A stretch of DNA of 64,000 bases from the NCBI GenBank assembly GCA_963736015.1, contig CAVTNG010000007.1, forward strand, positions 171,803 to 235,802. Reading direction: 5' to 3'. The first letter of the stretch is position 1; every line of letters starts with the position of its first letter. This document shows, piece after piece, positions 12,201 through 52,068 of this stretch. The notes beneath the pieces are model-generated. The model did not search any database, was not told where the DNA came from, and worked only from the letters and a program-made list of their open reading frames with translations. The translations under genes and the position numbers were made by a program. Source of the stretch: an uncultured Chloroflexia bacterium. Its GTDB lineage: Bacteria > Chloroflexota > Dehalococcoidia > DSTF01 > JACRBR01.

Positions 12201-12660
12201 CGTCCCTCCTCGGCGAAGGTTCTCCTTCGCCTCCTCCACTTTTCGTCCGAGATTGGTCCATTGGACCAGACGGGGTTTCCTCGGCCACACCTCCCTTACT
12301 GATGGCCGTCTCAGATTCGGCAAACTCACAGCGATGGTATCAGCGCTGTCAATATCCTTCAATTCTGAGAGACGGCTGTTCCGGCCCGCCTGAACCTGAT
12401 TGTGAGGCCGCCGGGACTCACGTCGCCGCGTATTTTCCGAAGTGCGGCATCGCGATTTCATCGCACCGCACGCGCATCTATACGGGATCGATGCCCGGGC
12501 GGACTTCCGCCTCCCACCCCAAGAGCCTCGGCCGCGGCACGCATAATCTTGATGACGCCGGGGCCTGCCCGCCCGGATTCGACTGCGGCCCGGCGATGCG
12601 GCATCGAGATTCAGGGGATATCCTTTCGCGTCGCCGCCCACTGCCTCGAGGAGCCATGCC

Positions 12661-19094: not shown

Positions 19095-19118
19095 ACTTCT
19101 AGTCTTCGCACTTCCTAC

Positions 19119-20250
19119 CTAGGCACGCTCCGCGGTCGGGCGGTAGCGCAGGTGGCGCGGGCCCGTGTACTCGAGCAGCGGGCGGATGTCAGCACGTTGT
19201 CCTCGTACTGCTCCAGGACGTGCGCGACCCAGCCGGGCATGCGGCCGACGGCGAACATCGGGATGAACTGCTCGTCGGGGATGCCGAGCAGCGAGTAGAC
19301 GGCGCCGGCGTAGAAGTCGACGTTCGGGTAGATGCCCTTCGCGCGGTAGGGCTCCATCGCGCGCTCGATCTCCTGCAGGATCTGGAACCAGGTGTCGTTG
19401 CCGATCTCGTGGCCGAGCTCGCGTGCGACGCCTCGCAGCTCCTGCCCGCGCGGGTCATCGGTCTTGTAGACGCGGTGGCCGAAGCCCATGACCTTCTCGC
19501 CGGCCTTGATGCTGCTCCTCGATGTAGTCGATGGCGCGCTGCGGGTCGCCGATCTCCTCGACCGTCTTCTGCACCGCCTCGGCCGCGCCGCCGTGCAGCG
19601 GGCCCTTCAGCGTCGCGATCGCGGCCACGATGCACGAGCCGATGTCCGCCGCCGTGCCCGCCGCGACGCGCGCGGCGAACGTCGATGCGTTGGAGCTGTG
19701 CTCGGCGTGCAGCACGAGGTCGAGGTCGATGATCTTCGCGTCCTCGGGCTTCGGCTCCTGCCCGAACATCATGTAGAGGAAGTTCGCGGCGTGCGAGAGG
19801 TCGTCGCGGGGCGAACCGGATCGAGGCCGTTGCGGATGCGGTGCATCGCCGCGACGATCGTCGCCACCTGCGAGATCAGCCGCACGCCGACGGGCTGCGC
19901 CACCTCGACCTTCGCCTCGTGGCTGTTCTCGTCGAGCGCAACGATTGCCGAGACGGCGGTGCGCAGGATGTCCATCGGATGCGCGGCCTTGACCCGCTCG
20001 ATGACGTCCAGAACCGGCTGCGGAATCGCGCGCCCGGCCTTCAATTCACGGTCGAAGCGCGCCAGCTCGTCGCGCGTCGGCAGGGCGCCGTACAGGAGCA
20101 GGTAAGAGACCTCCTCGAAGTCGTGGCGTGCTGCGCCAGGTCGTGGATGTTGTAGCCGCGGTACACGAGCTTGCCGGCATCGCCATCGATGAGGCTGATG
20201 CGCGTCTCGTCGAGTACGACGCCCTTGAGTCCGGTACCGAGGCTGCTCAT
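19119..20250 (-). CDS. gltA: citrate synthase (small, type-I-like), in 5 frame segments
   Basis: MSSLGTGLKGVVLDETRISLIDGDAGKLVYRGYNIHDLA; ...HAEHSSNASTFAARV...LKGPLHGGAAE; GFGHRVYKTDDPRG...YPNVDFYAG...; C-term DIRPLLEYTGPRHLRYRPTAERA*. Confidence 0.75.
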
Positions 20251-21265: not shown

Positions 21266-22606
21266 ATGGAGCAGCGGGTCCAGTTCTGCACAACGAGCGA
21301 CGGCGTCCAGATCGCCTACAGCGTGATGGGCGAGGGCTATCCGCTCGTCCTCGTGCCCGGCTGGGTGAGCCACCTCGAGCTGGATATGGAGCCCGATTCC
21401 CCGAACCGCGAGTTCTTCGAACGCCTGGCCGAACGCTACATGCTCGTCCGCTACGACAAGCGCGGCACAGGGCTCTCCGACCGCGGCGCAACCGACTTCA
21501 GCCTGGAGCCACGACTGCGCGACCTCGCTGCCGTGATCGATCGCCTCAAGCTCAACCGCTACGCCATGCGCGGTCAGTCCGAGGGCGGCCCGGTGGCGAT
21601 CGCGCACGCCGTGCGGCACCCGGAGCGCGTCTCACACCTGATCCTGCTCGGCACCTTCGCGCACATCGGCCACTCGGAGACCACTGACGCCCTCATCGCG
21701 CTCATTGGCGCGGAGTGGGGCCTGGGTTCCGCGACGATGGCCAGCATCTTCGTGCCATCGGCATCGAAGGAAATCCAGGAGCGGTTCGTCCGCTTCCAGC
21801 GCGAAGCGGCGACGAGGACCGATGCCGCCGCGATGCTCAAGGCGAACGTCGAGACGGACGTGCGCGATCTGCTGCCGCAGGTGCAGGCGCCCACGCTTGT
21901 CATCCACAGCGAAACGGACAGGGCCGTTCCGTTCGAACACGCGCGCCGTCTCGCCGCCACGATCCCGAACGCCACGCTGGCGCAGTACAAGGGCGACCAT
22001 GCGCCCATCGATGCGTACGACAGGATCCTCGAGCTGATGGAGGACTTCGTGCAGCCGGAGAGCGTAGCCGACGCGCAATCCGAGGTCGCGGCCGCGCCTT
22101 CGGGCTTGCTCACGATCATGTTCACGGACATCGAAGCATCGACGTCGATGACGCAACGTCTCGGCGATGCCGGCGCGCAGGAGGTGCTGCGCGGTCACAA
22201 CGAGGTCATCCGCGCCGCGCTCAAGGACAACGGCGGCACCGAGGTGAAGCACACCGGCGACGGCATCATGGCCTCGTTCGGCAAGGCATCGTCTGCGCTC
22301 GGCTGCGCGGCGTCGATCCAGCAGGCGTTCGAGGCGCGTAACGAGACCAACCCCGACTCGCGCGTACGGGTGCGCATCGGCCTCAACGCCGGCGAGCCGG
22401 TGGCCGAGGACGGCGACCTCTTCGGAACGGCGGTGCAGATGGCCGCGCGCATCTGCGCCCGCGCCGAGCCCGGCCAGATCCTGGCGGCGAACGTCGTGCG
22501 GGAGCTGGCGGCCGGCAAGCAGTTCCTCTTCGCCGACCACGGCGACGTCGTCTTGCGCGGCTTCGAGGACCCCGTCCACGTCTTCGAGGTCAGCTGGCGG
22601 CGGTAG
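21266..22606 (+). CDS. alpha/beta-hydrolase fused to class III adenylate/guanylate cyclase domain (LipJ-like architecture), intact
   Basis: 446 aa; N-term hydrolase fold (VLVPGWVSHLE...RGQSEGGPVA); C-term CHD LLTIMFTDIEASTSMTQRLGD...VKHTGDGIMASF. Confidence 0.75.
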   Translation: MEQRVQFCTTSDGVQIAYSVMGEGYPLVLVPGWVSHLELDMEPDSPNREFFERLAERYMLVRYDKRGTGLSDRGATDFSLEPRLRDLAAVIDRLKLNRYAMRGQSEGGPVAIAHAVRHPERVSHLILLGTFAHIGHSETTDALIALIGAEWGLGSATMASIFVPSASKEIQERFVRFQREAATRTDAAAMLKANVETDVRDLLPQVQAPTLVIHSETDRAVPFEHARRLAATIPNATLAQYKGDHAPIDAYDRILELMEDFVQPESVADAQSEVAAAPSGLLTIMFTDIEASTSMTQRLGDAGAQEVLRGHNEVIRAALKDNGGTEVKHTGDGIMASFGKASSALGCAASIQQAFEARNETNPDSRVRVRIGLNAGEPVAEDGDLFGTAVQMAARICARAEPGQILAANVVRELAAGKQFLFADHGDVVLRGFEDPVHVFEVSWRR

Positions 22607-22851: not shown

Positions 22852-24819
22852 GTGCCAGCCTTACGTTCCCTTGACTCCGTCTTCGCCCGCGTCCAGAAGC
22901 CGGCCCGGTACACGGGCGGCGAGTTCAACTCGATCACGAAGGACTGGGACGCCTGCGACGTGCGCGTCGCGCTCGCCTACCCCGACCTCTACGACATCGG
23001 CATGTCGAACCTGGGGCTGGGCATCCTCTACGACATCGTCAACCGGCGCGAGGGCATGCTCGCCGAGCGCGTCTTCGCGCCCTGGTCCGACCTCGAGGCG
23101 ATCATGCGCGCGGAGTCGATCCCGCTCTGGAGCCTCGAGACGCGGCACCCCCTGCGCGAGTTCGATGTCATCGGCTTCTCGCTGAGCTACGAGGGCACGT
23201 ACACCAACATCCTCAACATGCTCGACCTGGCGGGCCTGCCCGTGCGCGCCGAGGAGCGCACCGACGCGCACCCGCTGATCATCTGCGGCGGCTCCGGCGC
23301 GCTGAACCCCGATGCGCTCGCTGACTTCGTCGACGTCTTCTGCCTGGGCGATGGCGAGGAGACGATCCTCGATGTCGTCGACTTCGTGCGCGAGTGGAAG
23401 CGCCAGGGCCGCGGCACGCGCGAGGAGATGCTGCTGCGCCTCGCGAAGATCTGGGGCATCTACATCCCGCGCTTCTACCAGCCCGAGTACAACGCCGACG
23501 GCACGATCAAGGCGGTCGCGCCCGTCGTCGAGGGCCTGCCGCCGCGCGTGACGAAGCGCTTCGTGCAGGAGCTGCCGCCAGCACTGACCACGCCCATCGT
23601 CCCGTACCTGCAGACCGTGCACGACCGCGCCGCCATCGAGATCCAGCGCGGGTGCACGCAAGGCTGCCGCTTCTGCCAGGCCGGCATCATCTACCGCCCG
23701 CGGCTCGAGCGCTCGCCCGAGGAGGTGCTGCAGGCGGCGAAGGACCTGGTGCGCAACACCGGGTACGACGAGTTGTCGCTCGTCTCGCTCAGCACGACCG
23801 ACCACTCGCGCATCGTGCCGATGGTCGATGGCCTGCGCGCGGAGTTCGGCGGGACGCTGACGATGTCGCTGCCCTCGATGCGCGTGGACAGCTTCTCGGT
23901 GCGCATCGCCGAGGCGGTCGCGACGCGCGGCAAGCACAGCATCACCTTCGCGCCGGAGGCGGGGACGGAGCGCCTGCGCATGACGATCAACAAGATCGTC
24001 ACCGACGACCAGCTATACGAGGCGGCGGAGAACGCCTTCTCGACCGGCTGGAGCAACGTAAAGATGTACTTCATGGTCGGCCAGCCGACGGAGACGCACG
24101 AGGACATCGAGGGCATCGTCACGCTGGCGAAGCGTGTGCGCGAGATCGGGCGCCGGCACCACGGCGGCCGCGCGCGTGTGCGCGTCAGCACATCGAACTT
24201 CATCCCGAAGGCGCACACGCCGTTCCAGTGGGCGTCGCAGGCGCGCCCCGAAGTCCTGCGCGCGCGCCACCACTACCTCCGCGACGCGCTGAAGAAGGCG
24301 GGCGTGCAGTTCTCGTGGGAGGACCCGGAGCACAGCCTGCTCGAAGCGGTGCTCTCGCGCGGCGACCGTCGCCTGGGCGGCGCGATCCAGCGCGCGTGGC
24401 AGGCGGGCGCGCGCTTCGATGCCTGGCACGAGCACTACGACTGGCCGCGCTGGGAGCAGGCGCTCGCCGACAGCGGCCTCGATGCGGGGTTCTTCGCCTA
24501 CCGCGAGCCGGGGCTGTGGGATCCGTTCCCGTGGTCGCACATCAACATCGGCGTCACGGAGTCGTACCTGCGCGCGGAGTGGCTGCGCACGCTGAAGGGC
24601 CAGCAGACGGCCGACTGCCACAAGGAGCCGTGCAACGTCTGCGGCGTGCAGAACCAGAACGCGACCGATTGCCTCGACCGCCTCGACCTGCGTCTCGCCG
24701 CGCAGGGCAAGCCGCGCGAAGGACCGCACCGGCCTCGTGCGCCCGATCGAGATGTTCTCGCTGACGTAGGTTCGGGTGCAGCACGGGGCCACAGAGAGCG
24801 CAGAGGTTGGTTGGGGTGA
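22852..24819 (+). CDS. radical SAM protein with N-terminal B12-binding-like domain (TIGR03960 family)
   Basis: 655 aa; VALAYPDLYDIGMSNLG...; CTQGCRFCQAG radical-SAM cysteine motif; GTG start with GGGAGG RBS; last about 40 aa may be off-frame. Confidence 0.7.
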   Translation: MPALRSLDSVFARVQKPARYTGGEFNSITKDWDACDVRVALAYPDLYDIGMSNLGLGILYDIVNRREGMLAERVFAPWSDLEAIMRAESIPLWSLETRHPLREFDVIGFSLSYEGTYTNILNMLDLAGLPVRAEERTDAHPLIICGGSGALNPDALADFVDVFCLGDGEETILDVVDFVREWKRQGRGTREEMLLRLAKIWGIYIPRFYQPEYNADGTIKAVAPVVEGLPPRVTKRFVQELPPALTTPIVPYLQTVHDRAAIEIQRGCTQGCRFCQAGIIYRPRLERSPEEVLQAAKDLVRNTGYDELSLVSLSTTDHSRIVPMVDGLRAEFGGTLTMSLPSMRVDSFSVRIAEAVATRGKHSITFAPEAGTERLRMTINKIVTDDQLYEAAENAFSTGWSNVKMYFMVGQPTETHEDIEGIVTLAKRVREIGRRHHGGRARVRVSTSNFIPKAHTPFQWASQARPEVLRARHHYLRDALKKAGVQFSWEDPEHSLLEAVLSRGDRRLGGAIQRAWQAGARFDAWHEHYDWPRWEQALADSGLDAGFFAYREPGLWDPFPWSHINIGVTESYLRAEWLRTLKGQQTADCHKEPCNVCGVQNQNATDCLDRLDLRLAAQGKPREGPHRPRAPDRDVLADVGSGAARGHRERRGWLG

Positions 24820-25378: not shown

Positions 25379-25463
25379 GACCGCGGTTCTGTCACTTCCC
25401 GCGTCTCACCCGCGATTGACAGCCCATGCGATAATGGCATCCCACACACAGGAGGCCCGCATC

Positions 25464-26346
25464 ATGACCACCGACACCACTACCACCGAGATCATCGAGA
25501 AGAGCGGAGTGCTCGTCGGGCCGCACCGGCGGCCGCGTAACCTGGCGATTAACCAGCGGGGCAGCATCCACGACGACGCGACGGCGCAGAAGCTCGGCTT
25601 CCGCGGCGGCACCGTCGCCGGCTCGATCCACATGGAGCAGTTCCCGCCGATCCTCGTGCGCGCATTCGGCGAGCGCTGGTTCGAGAGCGGCAGCCTCTCC
25701 TGCTACTTCCGCAACGCCACCGTCGACAACGAGGCCGTGCGCCCGCTCGTGGAGGTTCCGCCGACTGGCGCGGCCGATGCGCAGATCAACATCTGGATGG
25801 AGCGCGACGACGGCATGCAGGTGCTCGAAGGGCACAGCGTCAGTCGGCGATCCGGCCGAGCCATCGATGCTGCGGCGAAAGCTCGCGGAGCCACGCGAGC
25901 GCGGCGAGCTGCGCATCCTCGCCGACCTCAACGCCGGCGACGCACTCGATACCGTCCCGGTGCGCCTCACACGCAAGGAGTCCGCGCCGCGCCTAGAAGT
26001 GATCACAGAGCCGATGTCCTGGTACGAGGACGCGTCGCCTTGGGGCGGCGCCGTCGTCAACCCCGGCCTCGTCGTGCATATGATGGTGCAGGCTCAGGCC
26101 AGCATGCGCACGCGCGCGCGCGCCGTCGGCCTCTATGGCGCGATCGAGGTGCGGCACCTGCGCGGCCCCGTCTTCGCCGAGCACGACTACGAGGTCTCGG
26201 GCACGATCCTCGCGCTCGGCGACACGCCGAAGACGGAGTACCTCTGGTACGAGACCATCATGCGCGAGCCCGGCGGCCCCGGCGTCGCATCGATGCTGAT
26301 GATGCTGCGCTTCATGAAGGGCTCATCGAAGCTCTGGGCTGAGTGA
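25464..26346 (+). CDS. MaoC-like (hot-dog fold) dehydratase-type protein, probably double hot-dog; one frameshift near 25830
   Basis: MTTDTTTTEIIEK...GSIHDDATAQKLGFRGGTVAGSIHMEQF (MaoC motif) then second segment ORF 25777..26346; AGGAGG RBS. Confidence 0.4.
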
Positions 26347-26407: not shown

Positions 26408-26917
26408 ATGTGGCGCTGGTATCGCGACCACGAGTTCAGCCTGCTCGACGGCAACCCCTATCCCTCGTCGCTCGGCGCCATAGAAGGCTTCATCCGCTCG
26501 CTACCGGCGCCGTCGTACTCGGACGTGTCGCTCGGGATCGAGATAGAAGATCGAGAACTGATCGGCATCGTCCGCCTGAAGCGCGGCGCGCAGGAAGATC
26601 GCCGCGCGGACTTCGGCATCGCGATCGAGCGCGCGCGCTGGGAGCAGGGGTACGGCACTGATACCACGCGGACGATCCTGCGCTTCGCGTTCGAGGAGAT
26701 GGGGCTACATCGCGTCGAGCTGGGCGTGCTGGACTCGAACGAGCGCGCGCATCACGTGTACGCGAAGTGCGGCTTCCGCGACGAGGCTCGATTGCGCCAG
26801 CGGCACTATCGCCTCGGCGCATGGCGTGACGTGATCCTCATGGGCATCCTGCGAGACGAGTTCCAGAGCGCGCTCGTGAGCAGGCGAGATGCCGCTGCGA
26901 TGCGTCGGGACGGATAG
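26408..26917 (+). CDS. GNAT family N-acetyltransferase (N-terminus may extend upstream to about 26345 with a non-ATG start)
   Basis: ...RWEQGYGTDTTRTILRFAFEEMGLHRVELGVLDSNERAHHVYAKCGF. Confidence 0.7.
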   Translation: MWRWYRDHEFSLLDGNPYPSSLGAIEGFIRSLPAPSYSDVSLGIEIEDRELIGIVRLKRGAQEDRRADFGIAIERARWEQGYGTDTTRTILRFAFEEMGLHRVELGVLDSNERAHHVYAKCGFRDEARLRQRHYRLGAWRDVILMGILRDEFQSALVSRRDAAAMRRDG

Positions 26918-26947
26918 TTGAAGCCCTGTGCTGAGTAGCCGCGGTCA

Positions 26948-28261
26948 TCAGCCCGCGCGCACGGCGAATACGCGCACCGGCTCGGCGATACCCTTGAGCT
27001 CGTACTCGCCGCGATCTCCGAACGTCACTCCTGCCGACGATCGCGCCATCCCTCGCACGACGTCCGACACCAGGATCTCGCCGGGTGCGGAGAGCCCGCA
27101 GATCCGCGCGGCGATGTTCACCGCGCCGCCGTACACATTGTTGGACTCGACGATCACATCGCCCGCATGCAGGCCGATGTGCAGCGGCAGCCCCGCGTCG
27201 TCACCCGCCGCGAGCACAGCGAGCGCGCCTCGTACGCCCTCGGACGCCGACTGGAACGTCGCGAGCACGCCATCACCCACCAGCTTGCCCTCAATGAGGG
27301 TGCCGCCGTGGCCTTCGATGACCGACCGGAGCGTGCCGTCCAGCCCGCGCGCCCTTGCCCGGAACGACTCGTCGCCGAGTGCCTCCGTCAGACCCGTCGA
27401 ATCCGCGATGTCCGCAAACAACAGCAGGGCCATCCTCTGCGGCGGAGACACCGGCACGGCCAGTTCGGGCACGCCGAGAAAGCTCCACGTCGCGGCCGGC
27501 ATCGCCTGCACTTCTTCCTCGGTTTCCATCTCGACCAGTTGCGCGTTCGGGAGCGTCGCCGCGATCCGCCGCGTTGGCTCCAGGAAGATCGCCTGCGGGC
27601 CCGCCCGATTCGCGATAAGCAGGGTCGGGCACGTCACATGAGGGAGGATGCCTTCCACATTCCAGGAGGTGACCTGCTCGAAGAAGGTCAGCAGGGAGGC
27701 CGGCGTCGTGCTCGCGCGGATCATCTCGGCGATGCTCGCCGCCAACTCGTGGTCCCCCCAGCCGAGCGCGACTCGGGCGAGCGTTTCCGTGGTGATGGTC
27801 CAGTCCCGTTCGGCGAGCGAAACGATAGCCGCCGTGGAGGGATCGGCGATTTCGTCGAACCGCGAAAACGCGCGGTTCAGGACGAGGTGTGAAACCCGTT
27901 GCGGGTTGCGTGCGGCGTAGGTCAGCGCGATCGGGGTCGCAAGCCCCGTTGCGTCCAGGGCGAAGGTCTCGCATCCGACGCGATCTACAACGGCCTCGAT
28001 GTCATCCGCGCACGCGTCGAGCGAGAAGTCAAGAGCGTCCCGCTGCGACCGCCCGAAGCCGTGCAGATCGAATCGCACGAGCGTCCGGTATCGCGCGACG
28101 CGGTCGGCGTGGAGCCTGGACCCCGGCAGGTCGAGCTCCATCTCCAGGTTGCTGACGGGCACCGAGGGAATGGCGACGATCGCCGGGCCGTTGCCGGCCA
28201 CGTGGTAGGCGATGGTGACGCCGCTGCGGGTCTTCGTATAGAGCGCTCGGACATCGCTCAC
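26948..28261 (-). CDS. alpha/beta-hydrolase--class III nucleotide cyclase fusion protein, paralog 2 (intact)
   Basis: 437 aa; C-term LLFADIADSTGLTEALGD...GDGVLATF...GLHAGDV; same architecture as 21266..22606. Confidence 0.75.
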   Translation of the reverse strand: MSDVRALYTKTRSGVTIAYHVAGNGPAIVAIPSVPVSNLEMELDLPGSRLHADRVARYRTLVRFDLHGFGRSQRDALDFSLDACADDIEAVVDRVGCETFALDATGLATPIALTYAARNPQRVSHLVLNRAFSRFDEIADPSTAAIVSLAERDWTITTETLARVALGWGDHELAASIAEMIRASTTPASLLTFFEQVTSWNVEGILPHVTCPTLLIANRAGPQAIFLEPTRRIAATLPNAQLVEMETEEEVQAMPAATWSFLGVPELAVPVSPPQRMALLLFADIADSTGLTEALGDESFRARARGLDGTLRSVIEGHGGTLIEGKLVGDGVLATFQSASEGVRGALAVLAAGDDAGLPLHIGLHAGDVIVESNNVYGGAVNIAARICGLSAPGEILVSDVVRGMARSSAGVTFGDRGEYELKGIAEPVRVFAVRAG

Positions 28262-29599
28262 TCGACGACCGCCTCCCGCACCGCAAACACTCGCTGGGGT
28301 TCGGCAATCCCTTTGAGTGCGTGCTCACCGCGATCCTCGAACGTCACGCCGGCGGAACTGCGGGCGAGATCGGCGACGGTGCGCGAGACGAGGACCTCGC
28401 CCGGAGGCGCGAGCGCGCTGATGCGCGAGGCGATGCTGACCGCGCTGCCGAATACGTTGCTCCGGCCGTCTGCATCGACCTCGCGGAGCACGTCTCCGGC
28501 ATGGAGGCCGATATGGAGGCCGAGGCCCGTCGGACGCGGCGGCGGCCTCCAACGTAAGGGCTGCCGCGATGGCCTGCGAGGCTGCGGGGAACGTCGCGAG
28601 GATGCCATCGCCGAGGGTCTTCCCATCGACCACCGTGCCTCCGTGGTCGCGCACGGCGATGCGCAGCGCCTCGTCGAGGGGGCGTGCCTGTTCGCGGAAG
28701 GCGGCGTCGCCGATGCGCACGGTATGCGCGGTGTGGTCGGCGATGTCGGCGAAGAGGATGACGGCGGTTCCTGATGCCAACGCGTCGTCGCCCTCCCCGT
28801 GCGCGGCCAGGAACTGCTCGACGATTGTCGCGTACGTTTGTTCGGAGCCCGGCTTGATGGTGGCGAACTCCGCGTTCGGCAGCAGCGTGACAAGCTTCTT
28901 CCCGAAGCGACTCGCTTCTTGAGTGCGCCCTCCAACGGCGGTTGGGGACGTGTCCTCGATGACCAGGGCTGGCGACGTCACGTTGGGCAACTCAGGCGTC
29001 GAGTCGAGTTGCTCAAGCTCGCTCATCACACGGTCCCAGGACTCTGCCGTGAACTGTCTTGAGGTGTGTTCTACCCATCTCTTCGCACCGCGCGCTCGGT
29101 CCCATCCGAACGTACGCAGCGCGGCCAGCTGCAGGTACTCGTGAAAATGCGTCTGCTCAATCACGGGGAGACCGGCGAGCGCCGCCCTCCGCATCGACGA
29201 GCCCGGTGGTGAGGGATTCCAGAGCGCGAGCCGCCGTACGCGCTCAGGATGCCGCGCGACATATGCCAGGGCGGTCTGGGCAGGCGTCAGGTGTCCCAGA
29301 AGGTCGAATCGATCGAACTGGAGTGCGTCGGCGACGGCCTCAACGTCCCGGACCGAGGATTCGAGGGTGTACTCCGGTTCGGAACCGGCGGAAAGGCCAA
29401 GCCCGCGCGGGTCCCAGATTACGACCGTGCGGTGATCCGCAAGTGAGAGCCACGGTGCGTCACTGTCCGAAGCAAGCTCATCGTCGACGGCCAGTCGCAG
29501 GATCGCCCGCACAATGAGAAGCGGCGGACCGCTACCGGCGATGGCGTAGGCGATGTCCGCTCCATCGGACGTTCGCGCGTATCGAATGCGCGGCTCCAT
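28258..29599 (-). CDS. alpha/beta-hydrolase--class III nucleotide cyclase fusion protein, paralog 3 (frameshift about 28530 inside the cyclase domain)
   Basis: ORF 28325..29599 gives hydrolase part and ILFADIADHTAHTVRIGD...GDGILATF; cyclase C-term GLHAGDVLREVDADGRSNVFGSAVSIASRI...GIAEPQRVFAV in ORF 28258..28935 frame; ATGA overlap with paralog 2. Confidence 0.65.
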
Positions 29600-29841
29600 C
29601 AGCCCGCCCCCGGCACGCGCACCGCATACACACGCACCGGCTTGGCGATGACCTTGAGTGCGTGGTCCCCGCGGTCGTCGAACATGACGCCCGCGGAGGT
29701 GCGTGCCAGATCGGCGACGGTGCGTGAGACGAGCGCCTCGCCGGGTTCGGCGAGGGTGCTGATGCGTGCGGCGATGTTGACGGTACCGCCAAAGACGTTG
29801 CTCCGCCCGCCGGGGTCGCGTTTACGGACCATCGGCGCCAT
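29599..29841 (-). pseudogene. 3' remnant (last about 75 codons) of a further cyclase-domain paralog
   Basis: GGRSNVFGGTVNIAARISTLAEPGEALVSRTVADLARTSAGVMFDDRGDHALKVIAKPVRVYAVR; no upstream hydrolase domain; abuts proS upstream region. Confidence 0.55.
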
Positions 29842-29918
29842 TATCGCCGCGTCCGCGGTTTGAAGTCACGCAGCAGCGCGCGTACTGCCACCCGCGCACG
29901 TCCGATAGAATCCGCCAC

Positions 29919-31633
29919 ATGCGAATGTCCCGCCTCTTCGGCAAGACGCTCCGCAACGCACCCGCCGAGGCCGAGACGCCGAACCACCAGCTCATGCTGC
30001 GCGCGGGGCTCGTGCAGCAGCTCGCGGCCGGCATCTACTCTTACCTGCCCACCGGCTGGAAGGTGATGCGCAAGATCGAGCAGATCATCCGCGAGGAGAT
30101 GGACCGCGCGGGCGGGCAGGAGATCGTCATGCCCGTCGTGCAGCCCGCCGAGCTGTGGGAGCTGTCCGGCCGCGCCCGGACCATGCACGACGTCCTCTTC
30201 CACCTGAAGGACCGCCGCGAGCGCGACCTCGTCCTCGGCCCGACGCACGAGGAAGTGATCGTCGATCTCTTCAAGAAGCAGGTGCAGAGCTACCGCGACA
30301 TGCCGCTCATGGTCTACCAGATCCAGACGAAGCTCCGTGACGAAGCGCGCCCGCGCGGCGGCCTGATGCGCGTGCGCGAGTTCACCATGAAGGACGCCTA
30401 CTCCTTCGACGAGAGCTGGGAGAAGCTCGACGACTCCTACGACGCCGCGCGCGAGGCCTACGTCCGCATCTTCGAGCGCTGCGGCGTGCCGACGGTGCCC
30501 GTGCAGGCCGACTCCGGCGCGATCGGCGGCAAGGACAGCGAGGAGTTCATGTTCATCGCCGACTCCGGCGAGGACACCGTCCTCTTCTGCCGAACTGCGA
30601 CTACGCCGCCAACGACGAGAAGGCCGGACACCGGAAGCGGCGAGTTGCCGCCCGAGGAGCCGCTCCCGCTCGAAGAGGTCGCCACGCCAGGCCAGAAGAC
30701 GATCGATGACCTGGTGAAGTTCCTCGGCGTGCCGCACGACGAGGACGCTGAAGGCCGTCTTTTACGAGGCCGACGGCGAGCCCGTGTTCGTCGCCATCCG
30801 CGGCGACCTCGAGGTGAACGAGGTCAAGCTCGCGAACGCGCTCAAGGCTACGACGGTCGCGATGCTCGACGACGACGGGCGTCCGCAAGCACGGCCTCGT
30901 CGCCGGTTCGGCGTCGCCCGTCGGCCTCAAGGACATCCGCACCATCGCCGATGACACGGTGCTGACGTCGCCCAACCTCGTCGCCGGCGCCAACAAGCCG
31001 GACACGCACTACCGCAACGTCAACCACGGCCGCGACTGGAGCGCCGACTGTCGTCACGGACATCTCGCTCGCGCGCGAGGGCGACCTCTGCCCGCGATGC
31101 GGCGGCGCGGCTCGCAGGCCAAGCGCGCGTACGAGATGGGCCACGTCTTCAAGCTCGGGCACGATGTACACGGAGAAGATGGACGCGCTCTTCACCGACG
31201 AGAACGGCGATCTGCAAGCCGGCCGTCATGGGCTGCTACGGCATCGGCGTCGGCCGCGTGTTCGCCGGCGCGATCGAGGCCAACCACGACGAGCGCGGCA
31301 TCATCTGGCCGGCCGGAGCTGGCGCCGTACGACGTGCACCTCGTCGCGCTCGGCTTCGACAAGCCGGGTGTGCGCGAGAGCGCGGAGCAGGTGTACCAGC
31401 AGCTCCAGGACGCCGGGCTCGAGGTGCTCTACGACGACCGCGAGGAGGGCACCGCCGGCGTGAAGTTCAACGACGCCGACCTGCTCGGCATGCCCGTACG
31501 CGTCACCGTAAGCCCCCGCAGCATCGAAGAACGGCGGCGCCGAGGTGAAGCGCCGCACGGAGAAGGACGCCCGCGTCGTCCCGCTCACAGACGCAGCTTC
31601 AGCGGTGAAGGAACTCGTGCCGCAACGCACCTA
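29919..31633 (+). CDS. proS: prolyl-tRNA synthetase (bacterial type), split into at least 6 frame segments
   Basis: [47 protein letters not shown]...; later segments [96 protein letters not shown], ...ELVPQRT*. Confidence 0.7.
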
Positions 31634-36235: not shown

Positions 36236-36551
36236 CTAACCCTCGACCGGGACGGGGAGTTCGTCCAGCAGCTCGCGCACCAGGCTCTCGGCGTCGCGTC
36301 CGCGCAGCCGCGACTGCGAGCCCAGCGTGATGCGGTGCGCCAGCACCGGCGCCGCCAGCGTCTTCACATCGTCAGGCATCACGTAGTCGCGTCCGCGTAC
36401 CGCTGCCAGCGCCCGCGCCGCGCGGAACAGCGCCAGGGATGCGCGGGGCTCGCGCCCAGCTCCACGGCGTCGTGCGCGCGCGTCGCCTGCGTCAGGCGGA
36501 CGATGTAGTCGCGCACCGATGGCTCGCAGTGCACGGCCGGCAGCATTAGGC
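36236..36551 (-). pseudogene. moxR: MoxR-family AAA ATPase, only the C-terminal (lid) third present; 5' part missing at the G8 tract
   Basis: ...[66 protein letters not shown]... with one internal frameshift; no Walker A/B upstream. Confidence 0.55.
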
Positions 36552-36587
36552 GGGGGGGGGCCATGTTTCTGCTCAACAGTTCGTCTT

Positions 36588-36809
36588 CCTACAGCGACTG
36601 CAGGATCAGCATCCGGAACATCGGGATCGCGTCGAACGGCTTGCGACCCGCACGGCTCTTCTTTTCCGCGTCCGGGGTCAGTGCCACCGCTTCGATGTCG
36701 GCCCGGAAACTCCCCAGGGAACCAGCGCCGCAATCGCTTCCAGCGGATCACCCTTCTTCGACAGCGCCGCTAATCGCTTCTCCGCATCGAAAAACCCCGA
36801 CTGTCCCAT
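36588..36809 (-). mobile_element. IS5-family (IS1031/ISRm-like group) transposase N-terminal fragment, frameshifted and truncated
   Basis: MGQSGFFDAEKRLAALSKKGDPLEAIAALVPW then (other frame) SFRADIEAVALTPDAEKKSRAGRKPFDAIPMFRMLILQSL*. Confidence 0.6.
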
Positions 36810-37310
36810 CGTCTCGCTCCGCAAAATCAGCGTCCTCACAAACGAGATTCGCATAGCGCCGCGCCACAGCCAATTATTCGAGGTCCCCTTGATCTCCTCG
36901 AGGACGCAATTCAGTCTGGGCGAAAATCTTTCCGTCCTGATGCGTGATCCGGCGGGAGAATTTCATGGCGTGCGGAAGCAGGAGACGGGCCCCGCGAAGA
37001 TAAGTCGCGCCCTTTGTGAACGGCGGTCAGGATCCGCGCAAAGTTGGCGGAGCGAGATTTTTCGGCATGACATTTGCAGACGGATTGGCCGGACCTTGCC
37101 GTCGGCCTCTTGGTGGCAATCAACGGCCGGGTGGCAAGCGCTGTCAACGCCGTAAGCCGCCGGAGGCGGGGGCCGAAGGCCCGCGTTGATAGAGGTTGCA
37201 ACCCGGCCATCCTTGGCCACCACAGCCGTCGGCCAACCGTCACGGTGCGGTTTTCTCCGCCAACTTTACGCGGAAACGCGCCGCCGGTAACACCCTTCTG
37301 CCGCATTACC

Positions 37311-37524
37311 GTAAGCGCTGTTTTCAGGCCACGTTTCTGAGCTTCGAGGCGGTGGGAAAAGCCCACGGGAGCAGGTCGTCGATCTGGCTGTTGGGATGAC
37401 CGTTGACGATCTTGGTGATGACGTCGGCGAGATAGGCGTGGGTGTCGACATCGCAGAGCTTGCAGGTCTCGACGAGCGAGGCGATGACGGCCCAGTGCTC
37501 GCTGCCGCCGTCCAAAGCGGCCTC
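37311..37524 (-). mobile_element. classical IS66-family tnpC, C-terminal fragment plus right inverted repeat (GTAAGCG... at 37311)
   Basis: ...ALDGGSEHWAVIASLVETCKLCDVDTHAYLADVITKIVNGHPNSQIDDLLPWAF*; IS66-type IR end GTAAGCGCTG. Confidence 0.55.
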
Positions 37525-37782
37525 ATGATGCCCGGAGTTCTGGGGCATGAGGTGAAAGTCACCTATCCGTTCCACCCGTTGTTTCAGCGGTCGGCGACCG
37601 TGGTCGCCGATCAAATGCACAACGGTAGTCGGCATCTGACTTTGCGTTCCGGCGACGACCGCTCGTTTCTGGTGCCGGCGTGGATGCTCAGCCCCGATGC
37701 GGCGTCGATCAAAATCCTTCGAAGTTCCGTGCTTTCCCATCGCCCGTCTCTTCGAGTTACGGGCGCTCTTGATTCGAGCTAG
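37525..37782 (+). CDS. recombinase-associated conserved hypothetical protein (copy A); paralog of 40645..40930
   Basis: MMPGVLGHEVKVTYPFHPLFQRSATVVADQMHNGSRHLTLRSGDDRSFLVPAWMLSPDAASIKILRSSVLSHRPSLRVTGALDSS aligns with FEVVVRYPHHPRAGERVMVLRRLRCADCPHFVIEQPGGSRLLLPAWMTE... Confidence 0.45.
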   Translation: MMPGVLGHEVKVTYPFHPLFQRSATVVADQMHNGSRHLTLRSGDDRSFLVPAWMLSPDAASIKILRSSVLSHRPSLRVTGALDSS

Positions 37783-37821
37783 CCTCTTGCGTGCGGGGTG
37801 AGATCTCCGAGAGAAGCGAAC

Positions 37822-38004
37822 ATGGCAAAGCAATTGGTGAAGATTCAGCTGGATTTGTTCGAGCAGCCACCGCCGGAGATGAGAATGGCGCTTGCGCCGG
37901 TGCAGCGCGCGAGCGCGCTGGAACAAATCCAAGCGCTGTTGATGGAGGCGACGGCGATCTTGGAAGACGGGCAGGAGGCGGGCGATGACCAAGATCAAGC
38001 CTGA
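37822..38004 (+). CDS. small recombinase-associated protein (copy A), 60 aa
   Basis: MAKQLVKIQLDLFEQPPPEMRMALAPVQRASALEQIQALLMEATAIL; similar QLDL..R..A......L..LL.E pattern as the 57-aa ORF 40468..40641; 3' end overlaps recombinase start. Confidence 0.35.
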   Translation: MAKQLVKIQLDLFEQPPPEMRMALAPVQRASALEQIQALLMEATAILEDGQEAGDDQDQA

Positions 38005-38400
38005 TCACCTGGCGCGTGATGCGATCGTCTATGTTCGCCAATCAACGACATTTCAGGTCGCGCAAAACCTTGAGAGCCAGCGACGGCAATACGGCTTGGT
38101 CGACCGGGCTCGTCAGCTCGGCTGGCCCGATGCCGAAGTGATCGACGACGATCTCGGGCGATCGGGCGGCGGCGGACGTCGGCCTGGCTTCGAAAAGCTT
38201 TTGGCAGCGATCTGCGAAGGGCGTGTCGGCCCGTGCTCTCGCTGGAAGCCTCACGACTGGCGCGCAATGGACGGGATTGGCACACGCTGCTCGAGTTCTG
38301 CGGCTTCGTCAGCACGTTGATCATCGACGAGGACGGTATCTACGACGTGACCTCGCCCAACGATCGACTTCTGCTCGGCATGAACGGGACGGTGACATGA
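37985..38400 (+). pseudogene. large serine recombinase copy A, N-terminal resolvase-domain fragment (about 138 aa) ending at the nested insertion
   Basis: MTKIKPDHLARDAIVYVRQSTTFQ...VIDDDLGRSGGGGRRPGFEKLLAAICEGR then frameshift ...ASRLARNGRDWHTLLEFCGFVSTLIIDEDGIYDVTSPNDRLLLGMNGTVT*; 70-80% identical to the N-terminus of 38418..40475. Confidence 0.65.
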
Positions 38401-38420
38401 TGCAGTACCTCGTCATCTCA
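38393..38420. promoter_or_regulatory. imperfect 28-bp dyad TGACATGATGCAGTACCTCGTCATCTCA centred on GTAC at the junction of copy A and copy B; candidate recombination (att-like) core
   Basis: 19/28 positions self-complementary; contains the stop codons of both the copy-A fragment (38398-38400) and copy-B recombinase (38418-38420). Confidence 0.3.
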
Positions 38421-40475
38421 TTGAAAAGGCAGGTTTTGTTGTCGCGCGTCGCGTGATATTGCGCGGCCGTTCGCGATCGCCTGCCGGACTGCCGGCCGAT
38501 CGAGAGCCTCTTCGGGGATCACATAGGGCGCGCCCACGCAGACCTGCCTCGCCGGCAGCACTCCATCGCGGATCAAGCGCACCACGGTCATCTTGCTGAC
38601 ACCGAGGCGGCGCGCGGCTTCGTGCAGGATAAGCTCGTGCCGCGCCGCGCGTTCGCCCTCCCGATAGCCCGCAATCCGATGCGTGCCGCGGAAGTTGCGG
38701 ACCCGCAACTCAGTCCAGGTAAGGCCTTTGCCCGAGCGGATACCGAGCCGGTTGAGAAGGGGAGCGATGCTGTGGTCCGGCAGGATGCGCGCCAGCTCGC
38801 GCACCAGCTGCACGGTCGCCACGTCGGTCTTCCAGCGATTCTGGCCAGACCGGTTCTTCACCACCTCAAGCCGCGTGTGATCTCCGCCCTGCCAATGCAG
38901 CACCAGGTGCAGCCGACCGGGCGCGACCGTGACGATGATCTCCTTGAGAACGGCCCGCAAAATCCGCTTGCGGGTCTCGGGAGAGGCGGCAGGATGGTTC
39001 CACAGGCGCGGCAAGTCTGTCGCCAAAGCGAGCATCTCGCGCCGCTCGGCTTCGGTCGGCGCCGGCGCCTGCGTTTCTCGGGCGACGCGCATCTCTTCTT
39101 CGAGCCGCGCCATTTCGCCAAGCTTCTCATTCCAGCGTCGCTCAAGATCGCTGGCCACCAGGCGATTGTCCGGATCGACCGCGTCATATTGCCGGTGTGC
39201 CCGCGCCGCCTCGTAACGGGCTTGCTCTAGGGCGAGCTCCATCTGCCGCAGCCGCGCCGCATCAGCCCCCTCGTGATCGGCGATCGACTGGACCGCCGCC
39301 TCAATGGCCAGCGGCGAGATCGCACCCAGGACTTCCGCCGACACCGCAGCATCGACCCGCGCATTGCTGAAGGCGATGCACCTCTTGCCGGTTGGGGAGG
39401 CGATCTCGGCATCACAGTGATAGCGCGCGTCGCGCCGGGCATGATGCCGAACCTTGAGCTTGCGGCCGCAGTGCCCGCAGCGCAGCAGCCCGACGAGAAG
39501 CGCGTCGCCACTGCGTACCGAGCCTGGCACCATCGCCCCCATCCTGTTCGCATTGCCGGCGATTACCTTCTGGTTGCGATCATACTCCTCCCAGGAGATG
39601 TAGCCATCATGGTGGTCGCGGATCAGCACCGTCCACTCTTCGCGCCGGCGCGCAACCCCGTGAGTGATGACCTTGCGACCGCCTTCGAACCGGGCCCGGG
39701 AGGCGGTGCGCCCGAAGACATAGGCTCCCCCGTAGACCGGATTGGTCAGCAGCCGATGAATCGCATGGTAGCGCGGCGGGCGCCACTGCACGGTCCGTCC
39801 CTGCGGGCCATAGACGGCAACCGGCAGCTCAATCCCCTCCTGCCGCAGCCACAAGGCGAGCTGGCGCACGCTGCCAATCTCGCCGAACTTGCGGAACACC
39901 AAGGACAGCACCTCGCGGATTCTCAGGTCCGGGTCCAGCTCCAGACGATCGTCAGCACCGCGCACGTAGCCGATCGCGAGCGTCGTATGCAACTCGCCGC
40001 GCGCGGCCTTGAGGCGCAGAGCTTCCTGGGAGCGCTGCCGGAACATCGAGAGCTCCAGCTCGCTGAAAGTTCCTTTCATGCCCAGCAGCAAGCGATCGTT
40101 GACCAGACGCGGATCATAGACCGCGTCCTCGTCAATGATCAGGGTGTTCAGCAGCGCACAGAACTCCAGCAGCGTGTGCCAGTCGCGCCCGTTGCGAGCC
40201 AGGCGCGACGCCTCGATCGCGAACACCGCGCCGGCGCGCCCCTCACAGATCGCCGCCAGCAGGCGCTCGAAGCCGGGGCGCGCCGTCCCGCCGCCCGAAC
40301 GGCCGAGATCGTCGTCGATGACAACCACCTTCTCCCAGCCGAGGGCGCGAGCGCGCGTCGGGAGGGCATACTGGCGCCGCCGGCTCTCCGGATTGTGGAG
40401 CATCTGGCCCAGGGTGGATTGCCGCACGTAGACATAGGCGCTGCGCGCCAGGTGATCGGGCGTGATCTTAGTCAT
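38418..40475 (-). CDS. large serine recombinase (resolvase catalytic domain + recombinase + zinc-ribbon + coiled-coil), 685 aa, intact
   Basis: MTKITPDHLARSAYVYVRQSTLGQ...EASRLARNGRDWHTLLEF...; CxxC...C.C zinc ribbon (RCGHCGRKLKV...YHCD); long Ala/Glu/Arg-rich coiled-coil; C-terminal HTH. Confidence 0.85.
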   Translation of the reverse strand: MTKITPDHLARSAYVYVRQSTLGQMLHNPESRRRQYALPTRARALGWEKVVVIDDDLGRSGGGTARPGFERLLAAICEGRAGAVFAIEASRLARNGRDWHTLLEFCALLNTLIIDEDAVYDPRLVNDRLLLGMKGTFSELELSMFRQRSQEALRLKAARGELHTTLAIGYVRGADDRLELDPDLRIREVLSLVFRKFGEIGSVRQLALWLRQEGIELPVAVYGPQGRTVQWRPPRYHAIHRLLTNPVYGGAYVFGRTASRARFEGGRKVITHGVARRREEWTVLIRDHHDGYISWEEYDRNQKVIAGNANRMGAMVPGSVRSGDALLVGLLRCGHCGRKLKVRHHARRDARYHCDAEIASPTGKRCIAFSNARVDAAVSAEVLGAISPLAIEAAVQSIADHEGADAARLRQMELALEQARYEAARAHRQYDAVDPDNRLVASDLERRWNEKLGEMARLEEEMRVARETQAPAPTEAERREMLALATDLPRLWNHPAASPETRKRILRAVLKEIIVTVAPGRLHLVLHWQGGDHTRLEVVKNRSGQNRWKTDVATVQLVRELARILPDHSIAPLLNRLGIRSGKGLTWTELRVRNFRGTHRIAGYREGERAARHELILHEAARRLGVSKMTVVRLIRDGVLPARQVCVGAPYVIPEEALDRPAVRQAIANGRAISRDARQQNLPFQ

Positions 40476-40641
40476 CGTCCACCTCCGGTCTGCCGGCCGC
40501 GGCGACGGCGCACTCGCTCAGCAGAACCTTGAGGAGATTGACGATCTCCGCGCGGGTTGCCGGGTCGAAGCGCCGGCGCGCGAGATCGCGGGCCGCCAGC
40601 ACGAGAAGATCGAGTTGCTGCCTTCGGGCATGCTGTTCCAT
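40468..40641 (-). CDS. small recombinase-associated protein (copy B), 57 aa, ATGA-type overlap with recombinase start
   Basis: MEQHARRQQLDLLVLAARDLARRRFDPATRAEIVNLLKVLLSECAVAAAGRPEVDDD; counterpart of 37822..38004. Confidence 0.35.
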   Translation of the reverse strand: MEQHARRQQLDLLVLAARDLARRRFDPATRAEIVNLLKVLLSECAVAAAGRPEVDDD

Positions 40642-40644
40642 CAT

Positions 40645-49851: not shown

Positions 49852-50096
49852 GCTGCGAACACGGGGGTGGGTCGGCCGGCTCCGCTGCCCGGACCTCGCG
49901 CACAGCTCGCGGCCATCCGACTTTATCGTCCAACAGCATCGTCCAACAGCGGCGTGATGCTTTCGGAGTTCTCGCTAATGTGCATTGCAGCATTCATGGT
50001 GCGGTGCAATAATGTCGAGTTCACAGTCAGGCCCAACTTCGAGGGTTTCAAAATAAATATAGTTGTGCATCAATGGCTTGCGAGCCATCGGACGTT

Positions 50097-51749: not shown

Positions 51750-51963
51750 CGTGGGCACCCTGGCGGTCCCACGAAAGCACCACGAAAAGCGCGATTCGGT
51801 CAAGACAAAGCGCGCCGAACATCTAGATCATTTAGCACCACAAAATCGACCGCGGGCGCAGAAACCCAGCATTTGCAGCGTTTTCCAACACTATCAAACG
51901 TCCAAACCCTCGAAGTTGGGTCAGGGCCGAGACCGGATCCCGCCAGCGCGACAGGAGAGTATT

Positions 51964-52068
51964 ATGACCAAGGGCACCACACGGCCATTGGAAATCCCCA
52001 AGGAAATGCAGGCCGTGACAGAGCAAAGCGTTGAACAAGCCAAGCTGGCGTTCAATAGTTACTTTCAG
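51964..52068 (+). pseudogene. phasin (PHA-granule protein) N-terminal 35 codons, cut by IS66-family copy 2
   Basis: MTKGTTRPLEIPKEMQAVTEQSVEQAKLAFNSYFQ with AGGAGA RBS; ends exactly at the IS66 IR (52070). Confidence 0.4.

Follow-up and report, generated by a model that had tools for sequence, protein, structure and literature searches.

A tandem row of hydrolase-cyclase fusion genes in a Chloroflexota genome: apparently old paralogues with a predicted sensor domain

The window analysed here, which is the whole stretch of DNA at its length of 64,000 nucleotides, carries on its minus strand two abutting genes for an alpha/beta-hydrolase domain followed by a class III nucleotidyl cyclase domain, together with a remnant of a related gene. 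Another gene of the same domain order is found on the plus strand. The features referred to throughout are the following.

21266 to 22606, plus strand: gene D, intact, 446 aa
26948 to 28261, minus strand: gene A, intact, 437 aa
28258 to 29599, minus strand: gene B, 1342 nt, frame broken by one extra base
28531, minus strand: the extra G behind the frameshift of gene B, TCC[G]ACGGG, without counterpart in a related contig
29599 to 29841, minus strand: remnant C, an 80-codon ORF holding the 3' end of a cyclase only
29840 to 29869, minus strand: sigma-70-like promoter match, GTGACT-18-GATAAT, a consensus match only

Gene B appears as two ORFs, one of 424 aa at 28325 to 29599 and the other, in a different frame, at 28258 to 28935 (both minus strand), and removal of the extra base at 28531 leaves an uninterrupted ORF of 446 aa. 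A preliminary description of this DNA had given the same lengths for A and for the frameshifted ORF of B, while its ATGA overlaps have to be corrected: the B/A junction is GTGA, where the stop of B and the GTG start of A overlap by 4 nt, and the C/B junction is TGATG, where the stop of the remnant and the ATG of B overlap by 1 nt. The sequence GGGAGG lies 10 nt upstream of the GTG start of A. Gene D is indeed a full-length paralogue on the opposite strand but is not upstream, since it sits 4.3 kb past the 3' end of A and converges on it. The neighbours of the array are proS, a GNAT acetyltransferase gene and a radical SAM gene.

Pfam matches to Abhydrolase_1 and Guanylate_cyc were found above the gathering score in A, B (in two pieces) and D. 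The scores were 33.2, 42.5 and 61.3 bits, respectively, for PF00561 (cut-off 25.8) and 29.5, 38.3 and 56.6 bits for PF00211 (cut-off 21.9). Remnant C matched Guanylate_cyc alone, again above the gathering score (24.0 bits). In A the hydrolase fold spans approximately residues 1 to 262 and the cyclase approximately residues 278 to 437. The cyclase motifs (FADIADST, FADIADHT or FTDIEAST, plus GDG) are present. The remnant, previously counted as 75 codons, matches only the final 70 or so cyclase residues, from the DPGGRS-NVFGG motif onward.

Comparison of the four copies found them diverged and far from identical. A and B share 43% amino acid identity, D shares 34 to 35% with either, and the remnant shares 71% (77.5% at the nucleotide level) with B. 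An assembly duplication was rejected because the copies are only 34 to 43% identical. D falls in a separate, Ma1120/LipJ-like subfamily and appears to be a distinct gene outside any local amplification, contrary to its earlier inclusion in the array.

The array had been taken as a sign of recent gene-family expansion. The same-strand, head-to-tail order with overlapping junctions, and a 5-residue insertion common to the remnant and B, are what a recent amplification of a single gene might leave behind. Against this, of 213 homologues found in other organisms, over 200 lie nearer to A, and likewise to B, than A and B lie to each other, and the remnant resembles copies from other genomes (71%) no less than it resembles B. 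Intact orthologues of B occur elsewhere at 63 to 71% identity. In one related locus (L002) the A orthologue is preceded by a gene with only 41% identity to B, and in another (L082) the B orthologue is followed by a gene with only 38% identity to A. Across the whole family, too, neighbours are seldom best matches. Recent local amplification is thus very improbable, and A, B and the remnant appear from these comparisons to be old, diverged paralogues.

The broken frame of B had been read as decay. A 98%-identical contig (L001) lacks the extra G and reads through the site in frame as S-T-G-L-G-L-H, and an independent orthologue (P0134) is also in frame there, as P-T-G-L-G-L-H. The 5' part of B compared with L001 gave a pN/pS of 0.07, indicating strong purifying selection. 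Neither a disabling mutation shared with these relatives nor relaxed selection, the marks of a pseudogene, was therefore found. A programmed frameshift was ruled out, since the orthologues lack it. To count frameshifts across the window we used colinearity on protein profiles, a GC3 frame plot being too noisy. The housekeeping gene proS (29919 to 31620) shows at least 10 frame switches while remaining colinear on the ProRS profile, and citrate synthase consists of four colinear pieces with at least 3 frame switches; with such noise, one indel in a 1.3-kb gene is expected. L001, too, has indels in A, B, D and proS, but not those of the window. Two ORFs at 25416 to 26346 also resemble one broken gene; they have no Pfam match and were left out of the tally.

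Some observations would fit a genuine, very recent pseudogene in an array undergoing active birth and death. The frameshift is present in the sequence, the extra base lies outside any long homopolymer, and a real dead fragment adjoins B. Partial or split copies occur in some related arrays as well. Indel errors are also unevenly distributed, with A, D and the 2-kb radical SAM gene intact. A scan of metagenomes for the 37- to 38-nt sequence around the site, with or without the extra base, returned no contig. Since the indel is private to the source assembly, the selection on B is strong and housekeeping genes of the same window are broken in the same manner, we consider a pseudogene unlikely, although a real mutation at 28531 private to this strain is conceivable. 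The frameshift is most likely an assembly or sequencing error and B probably an intact gene. Frameshifts in this window should be read as pseudogenes only with read-level support.

Remnant C presents a different case. Its 5' end is truncated 77 bp from the start of the divergent proS, and L001 carries the same 80-aa ORF, confirming the earlier report of a decayed copy. Among 79 related loci checked for a full-length ancestor beside proS, none had proS nearby. We regard the remnant, from its sequence, as a real dead fragment and the apparent relic of a third family member. Its pN/pS against L001 of 0.34 (pS 0.25) nevertheless denotes some constraint, which would not be expected of a pure relic.

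The remnant could instead be kept because B and A depend on it for expression, either as an 80-codon leader ORF that is translated or simply as 5' leader sequence. Although the window and L001 differ here at 12% of nucleotides, the ORF is open and equally long in both, the pN/pS is significantly below neutrality (binomial P = 0.003), and the stop overlaps the ATG of B. The only promoter-like match in positions 26700 to 30100 (0.3 expected) lies at its 5' end, in the region between it and proS. However, only 31 changes were counted, stops seldom arise in GC-rich sequence, and gene conversion from paralogues could imitate constraint. The promoter is a consensus match whose -10 box overlaps the ATG of the remnant, its predicted start would fall downstream of that ATG, and no Shine-Dalgarno sequence was found ahead of the ATG. 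A retained leader is therefore possible but doubtful. Of the birth and death proposed for the array, only the decay of the remnant can be upheld, that of B being probably an assembly error.

The residues that a class III cyclase requires are largely in place, so the possibility that all copies lack them can be set aside. In A they are D284, K326, D330, N375, N382, R386 and K423. The two metal-binding Asp (D284 and D330 in A) are present in A, B and D and are invariant across a 33-sequence alignment, while the corresponding region is missing from the remnant. Of the substrate pair, A, B and D have the Lys; at its second position D has Asp, and A, B, the remnant and most of the A/B subfamily have Asn. 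All four copies have the transition-state Arg; the transition-state Asn is found in A and the remnant and is replaced by Gln in D and by Ser in B (AVSIASR), which also has the 5-residue insertion (DADGRS) before its NVFG motif. The full D-K-D-N-N-R-K signature occurs in 122 of 143 A/B-like copies (85%). An AlphaFold (AF2) model of A has a pLDDT of 89.6, and its cyclase domain superposes on Rv1900c (1YBU) with a TM of 0.91 and an rmsd of 1.6 A. PDB sequence matches were to Rv1900c, Ma1120 and 3mr7. Comparison with L001 gave pN/pS values of 0.15 for A and 0.07 for D.

The missing Asn of B and D need not abolish activity, because relatives without it are active: Ma1120, an active homodimer, has Ala there (PMC4215837), and in Rv1900c the residue is His (PMC4886424). 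The strongly conserved output domain carries the residue set that a homodimeric enzyme would require, namely a pair of metal-binding Asp, the Lys that marks adenine, the Asn and Arg of the transition state and a Lys that binds phosphate. The product of the A/B family, with its Lys/Asn pair, is most likely cAMP, as suggested by the adenine-marker Lys.

The hydrolase domain shows the opposite pattern. The catalytic Ser and His are gone in A, B and approximately 98% of their subfamily, and of 151 A/B-like copies just 3 retain a complete Ser-Asp-His triad. The nucleophile elbow reads ATGLA in A and GHLTP in B, and both lack the His. D, on the other hand, keeps the triad at the sequence level (GQSEG elbow, Asp218 and His245). 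The N-terminal domain of the A model still matches esterases (3OM8 and 5H3H, TM approximately 0.8). Mean pairwise identity is 72% in the cyclase domain and 28% in the hydrolase lid, the most variable region of the hydrolase fold. Because the catalytic residues are lost and the lid is variable, the dead fold would act as a ligand-binding or regulatory sensor rather than an enzyme, and different paralogues would probably sense different inputs. The N-terminal fold of A and B is thus most likely a sensor, and the two proteins most likely adenylyl cyclases under the control of such a domain.

The array is not a local novelty. At E <= 1e-30, 1,093 representatives (50%-identity clusters) match the family, and at least two copies are present in 52 of 82 sequences examined, with at least 21 copies in one MAG. 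Related MAGs routinely carry abutting rows of up to six. Of 61 neighbouring pairs, 39 show an overlap of 4 or 1 nt. Median identity between neighbours is 51%, and in only 4 of the 61 pairs is the adjacent copy also the closest one. Exact-sequence look-ups of A and D returned no match, and a literature search for accounts of the hydrolase-cyclase family in Chloroflexota or Dehalococcoidia returned nothing relevant. These data indicate a very large, uncharacterised family of apparently soluble class III cyclases in soil Chloroflexota (MAGs labelled Dehalococcoidia). The locus itself would consist of a B-then-A pair, a two-gene operon to judge by the GTGA overlap of 4 nt, and ahead of it the relic of a third family member that has lost its 5' part; this relic may now be mere leader sequence. 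As a whole, the explanation of old tandem cyclase paralogues with dead sensor domains, an intact B, a relic and a separate D seems to us rather likely to be right.

Two other functions were weighed. Co-translated neighbours might form heterodimeric cyclases, in which a degenerate partner such as B gives the Asp pair and the canonical A gives Lys/Asn/Asn/Arg. The GTGA and TGATG overlaps favour coupled expression, and the Ser at the Asn position is kept under purifying selection in both B and its orthologue P0134. In L002 the gene preceding the A orthologue keeps both Asp but carries Arg in place of Lys and Ser in place of Asn, and several B-clade proteins show the same pattern, some also with Lys changed to Arg. 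Yet the copies with the full canonical set could homodimerise, complementary degeneracy is not systematic, B-like and A-like genes follow no fixed order (L034, P0123), and, as noted, relatives lacking the Asn work as homodimers. Such pairing is quite unlikely, and it is no less of a long shot that each dimer, like mammalian C1-C2, combines an active site with a regulatory one. We give an equally slim chance to the idea that tandem rows encode subunits that mix, each with a different dead-hydrolase sensor, and so allow combinatorial small-molecule sensing through one second messenger. An anti-phage role as Pycsar-like pyrimidine cyclases was suggested by weak PADLOC matches to PycC (E 6e-7 to 5e-3), which amount to generic cyclase-domain homology. 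This candidate was dropped because the matches are weak and no effector adjoins the array, as its neighbours listed above attest. The adenine-marker Lys is conserved, and a gene family with conserved arrays and dozens of members in each genome does not resemble known defence systems. A Pycsar-like function is accordingly hardly credible, and adenylyl cyclases with a sensor-like hydrolase fold remain the preferred reading.

Taken by itself, the locus is typical of a generically annotated family and has little significance. The wider pattern is of moderate interest: soil Chloroflexota hold dozens of cyclases of one architecture, in old, overlapping tandem rows maintained under purifying selection, in which the cyclase stays constant and the dead hydrolase varies. 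If the dead hydrolases are ligand sensors, they would constitute a large sensory repertoire, so far unexplored, in a soil lineage that is abundant and mostly uncultured.

LipJ (Rv1900c) of Mycobacterium tuberculosis is a single gene and is not known to stand in a tandem row. The likeness to it drawn in the preliminary description is borne out by the domain order, alpha/beta-hydrolase then class III cyclase as in A, B and D (PDB 1YBT, 1YBU), by the best PDB sequence match of the A cyclase domain (E = 2e-21) and by the TM of 0.91. Membership of LipJ proper is not supported. The NCBIfam profile NF058673 (LipJ, bifunctional lipase/adenylate cyclase) aligns in hydrolase-then-cyclase order over 12 to 448 of its 449 positions for A and 8 to 444 for D, with scores of 162.2 and 196.1 bits against an equivalog cut-off of 800, and the GxSxG Ser, Asp and His of the LipJ hydrolase, while present in the sequence of D, are not complete in A and B, where Ser and His are lost. 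The substrate pair of Rv1900c is Asn/Asp, in contrast to Lys/Asn in A and B; it too departs from the canonical residues, with His at the transition-state Asn position (PMC4886424).

The deposited name of 3MR7, an adenylate/guanylate cyclase/hydrolase from Ruegeria pomeroyi, denotes the same type of fusion. Its cyclase domain, a match to A at E = 5e-17, has the canonical Asn (GDAVNVAAR), but the protein is proteobacterial and uncharacterised, and its second substrate residue is Asp. Ma1120 of Mycobacterium avium (PDB 4WP3, 5D0E) is the best PDB match of D (E = 1e-27) and, like it, has a Lys/Asp pair and a residue other than Asn at the transition-state position; Ma1120 is an active adenylyl cyclase (PMC4215837). 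The crystallised constructs contain the cyclase domain only, whereas D has a full hydrolase with an intact triad, and where Ma1120 has the Asp of its substrate pair, A and B have Asn.

For the N-terminal domain, the closest analogy is with the D14/KAI2 receptors, in which an alpha/beta-hydrolase fold serves ligand perception. D14 and HTL structures are among the fold matches of the A model (TM approximately 0.73 to 0.75). D14/KAI2 retain the catalytic triad, unlike A and B, and no sequence kinship beyond the fold was found. As for the number of copies, the 17 class III cyclases of M. tuberculosis (Shenoy et al. 2004, PMC2447327) are likewise a large set of paralogues in one genome, with diverse N-terminal domains; in the Chloroflexota, by comparison, a single architecture has been multiplied, one MAG having at least 21 copies, and stands in overlapping tandem rows of up to six.

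Consecutive minus-strand hydrolase-cyclase reading frames (A, B and the 3' remnant C) and a further copy on the plus strand (D) were borne out by ORF and Pfam analysis:

21266-22606, plus strand: gene D, an ORF of 446 aa
26948-28261, minus strand: gene A, an ORF of 437 aa
28258-29599, minus strand: gene B, seen as a 424-aa ORF and continued in another frame as 28258..28935
29599-29841, minus strand: remnant C, an 80-codon ORF

Abhydrolase_1 and Guanylate_cyc were both matched by Pfam in A, D and B (in B over its two pieces), and the sole match in C was the end of Guanylate_cyc. The frames overlap at their junctions, but not by the ATGA described previously: the junction between the B stop and the GTG start of A reads GTGA, and that between the C stop and the B ATG reads TGATG. 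The remnant exists, although as an 80-codon ORF rather than 75 codons, and its homology is confined to the last ~70 residues of the cyclase domain. There is no room for its missing 5' part, since the start of the divergent proS lies just 77 bp from the ATG of C. Overall, the observation made in the preliminary description is confirmed and its interpretation is supported in part: the locus is an unremarkable representative of a large family with generic annotation, and it contains one true relic and one probable artefact of sequencing.

A pairwise matrix indicated that the copies are not near-identical. Protein identities were 43% (A-B), 34% (A-D), 35% (B-D), 71% (C-B) and 65% (C-A), and the highest DNA identity was 77.5% (C versus B). 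These low values rule out an assembly duplication. The array had also been read as a recent gene-family expansion through local amplification, and this reading was not supported. A and B each have thousands of homologues of the same architecture, and an exhaustive search returned 1,093 50%-identity cluster representatives at E <= 1e-30; nearly every homologue with an organism name comes from a soil or groundwater MAG labelled Dehalococcoidia or Chloroflexota. The relatedness of A and B was tested on an alignment of 216 full-length members, of which 208 lie nearer to A than B does and 204 nearer to B than A does; the smallest clade to include A and B together spans 200 of the 216 tips. Orthologues of B were found at 63-71% identity (proteins P0121-P0125 and P0134, and positions 11311-12624 of the related locus L034) and one of A at 76% (locus L002), with flanking genes that are non-orthologous to the window neighbours. 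Upstream of the L002 orthologue of A lies a gene with 41% identity to B, downstream of P0134 one with 38% identity to A, and the B orthologue of L034 comes last of three genes. The similarity of C to B is not above that of C to copies in other genomes.

Tandem rows were surveyed in 82 sequences (79 loci from GTDB representative genomes, L002, the window and L001, a related 403-kb contig from another assembly). Two or more cyclase copies were present in 52, with abutting same-strand runs of up to six. In L018, L045, L068, L051, L028 and other related-MAG loci, four to six hydrolase-cyclase genes abut in a row; L051 carries seven cyclase copies in 21 kb, and MAG JALYKW01 at least 21 in the stretches analysed alone. 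Overlaps of 4 or 1 nt join 39 of the 61 adjacent pairs. Identity between adjacent copies has a median of 51% and exceeds 80% in one pair only, and the best match of a copy is its neighbour in 4/61 pairs. Recent local amplification is thus unsupported, since the copies are old and diverged and tandem rows are normal in relatives; the window offers a small and typical instance of an old gene arrangement found across the lineage. Some proteins of the family (P0237, 813 aa; P0238, 1026 aa; P0273, 1014 aa; P0003, 653 aa) have two or three times the usual length or additional N-terminal sequence; they may be true fusions of neighbouring copies or gene calls that read through.

The frameshift in B, previously taken as decay, has to be viewed against its neighbours:

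19115-20250, minus strand: citrate synthase, split into four colinear parts that lie in different frames (Pfam Citrate_synt 1-39, 35-144, 156-244 and 251-352)
22852-24819, plus strand: radical SAM protein, 655 aa (Radical_SAM_N2 and Radical_SAM; a B12-binding match lies under the Pfam cut-off)
29919-31620, plus strand: proS (prolyl-tRNA synthetase), at least 10 frame switches needed to read it

The proS pieces, in different frames, are colinear on the ProRS profile (1-224, 269-308, 322-372, 435-463 and 466-533), a sign of a noisy and probably long-read assembly rather than of a decaying gene. L001 matches the window in gene order, 80-aa remnant included, and is 94-99% identical to it, yet ~170 gaps occur over ~15.6 kb aligned. 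L001 has private indels of its own, at sites other than those of the window, that disrupt A, B, D, proS and the radical SAM gene; the last is whole in the window and two genes (406 and 234 aa) in L001, so the two assemblies carry different indels. At the frameshift of B, the window has an extra G (28531) without counterpart in L001. Its removal opens a 446-aa frame reading ...AAAASTGLGLHIGLHAGD..., and P0134, an independent B orthologue from a JGI metagenome, is in frame at the site and reads ...AAAEPTGLGLHIGLHAGD.... The 5' part of B differs from L001 by 11 synonymous and 2 non-synonymous changes (pN/pS 0.07; A 0.15, D 0.07). The extra G could also be a very recent real mutation, but given this strong constraint and an indel confined to this visibly noisy assembly, B is most likely an intact gene. 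Two overlapping plus-strand ORFs at 25416-26346 (308 and 189 aa, in different frames), neither with a Pfam match, resemble one frameshift-broken gene.

C has the same length and junction in L001, and is therefore a real 5'-truncated fragment. Its non-synonymous changes (15 of 31) fall below the neutral expectation (P = 0.003, pN/pS 0.34). The sole promoter-like match in 26700-30100 lies at the 5' end of C, which may survive as a leader sequence for B-A, or else gene conversion may blur its constraint signal. Between the window and L001, C is 88% identical in nucleotides (pS 0.25), D 96.7% (pS 0.11) and the flanks 93-95%, versus 98-99% (pS 0.03-0.04) for A-B (26948-29599, paired with L001 8666-11315). 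Based on this difference, the A-B segment may have been exchanged recently by homologous recombination between the two lineages.

The L001 alignment ends at window position 36545, while the L001 locus continues. GC content drops from ~0.68 to ~0.61 over ~36500-52000, a region that may be an integrated mobile element and contains:

38418-40475, minus strand: large serine recombinase
50097-51803, minus strand: DDE transposase

No tRNA genes and no Rfam matches at the gathering threshold were found in the whole 64 kb (1-64000).

AlphaFold models A as a two-domain protein (pLDDT 89.6). The N-domain has the alpha/beta-hydrolase fold, includes a helical lid and resembles the esterases 3OM8 and 5H3H (TM ~0.8). 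The nucleophile elbow lacks Ser in A (ATGLA) and B (GHLTP), and His is absent in both; D keeps all three triad residues (GQSEG, D218 and H245). Ser, Asp and His are all kept in 3 of 151 A/B-like copies (a loss in ~98%) versus 5 of 18 D-like copies. Mean pairwise identity across the family is 72% for the cyclase domain, 37-46% for the hydrolase core and 28% for the lid. The simplest reading is a one-component signalling protein in which the cyclase output is conserved and the hydrolase-fold input is diversified and non-catalytic; this input may bind ligands.

The cyclase domain of A contains the two metal-binding Asp together with the Lys, the C-terminal Lys and the Asn/Arg pair, and the D-K-D-N-N-R-K signature is found in 122 of 143 A/B-like copies. 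The second base-contacting residue of A is Asn, not Asp; M. tuberculosis Rv0386, an adenylyl cyclase with guanylyl side activity, has Asn at the second substrate position (Gln/Asn pair). D has a Lys/Asp pair and Gln at the transition-state Asn position. B has Ser there, a rare variant shared with P0134 and some members of the B clade, a few of them with Arg for Lys as well. Loss of this Asn does not imply inactivity, since Ma1120 has Ala and is an active adenylyl cyclase in which introducing Asn abolishes activity (PMC4215837), and Rv1900c has His (PMC4886424), as also seen in our alignment. Some weakly suggestive observations favour heterodimeric cyclases formed between co-translated neighbours, but this reading is unlikely.

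A literature search found no paper on the Chloroflexota hydrolase-cyclase family. Multi-copy class III cyclase repertoires are already well known; PMC2447327 gives 17 for M. tuberculosis. Pycsar cyclases were rejected as a match, with weak model matches and no effector gene nearby. The 3MR7 protein has the architecture of the window genes. The likeness to mycobacterial LipJ (Rv1900c) noted in the preliminary description is upheld: A, B and D have the same domain order, and the modelled cyclase domain of A superposes on Rv1900c and Ma1120 (TM 0.91, rmsd 1.6 A). They differ from LipJ in that A reaches only 162 bits and D 196 against the equivalog cut-off of 800, and A and B lack the Ser nucleophile and the His expected of a LipJ lipase.
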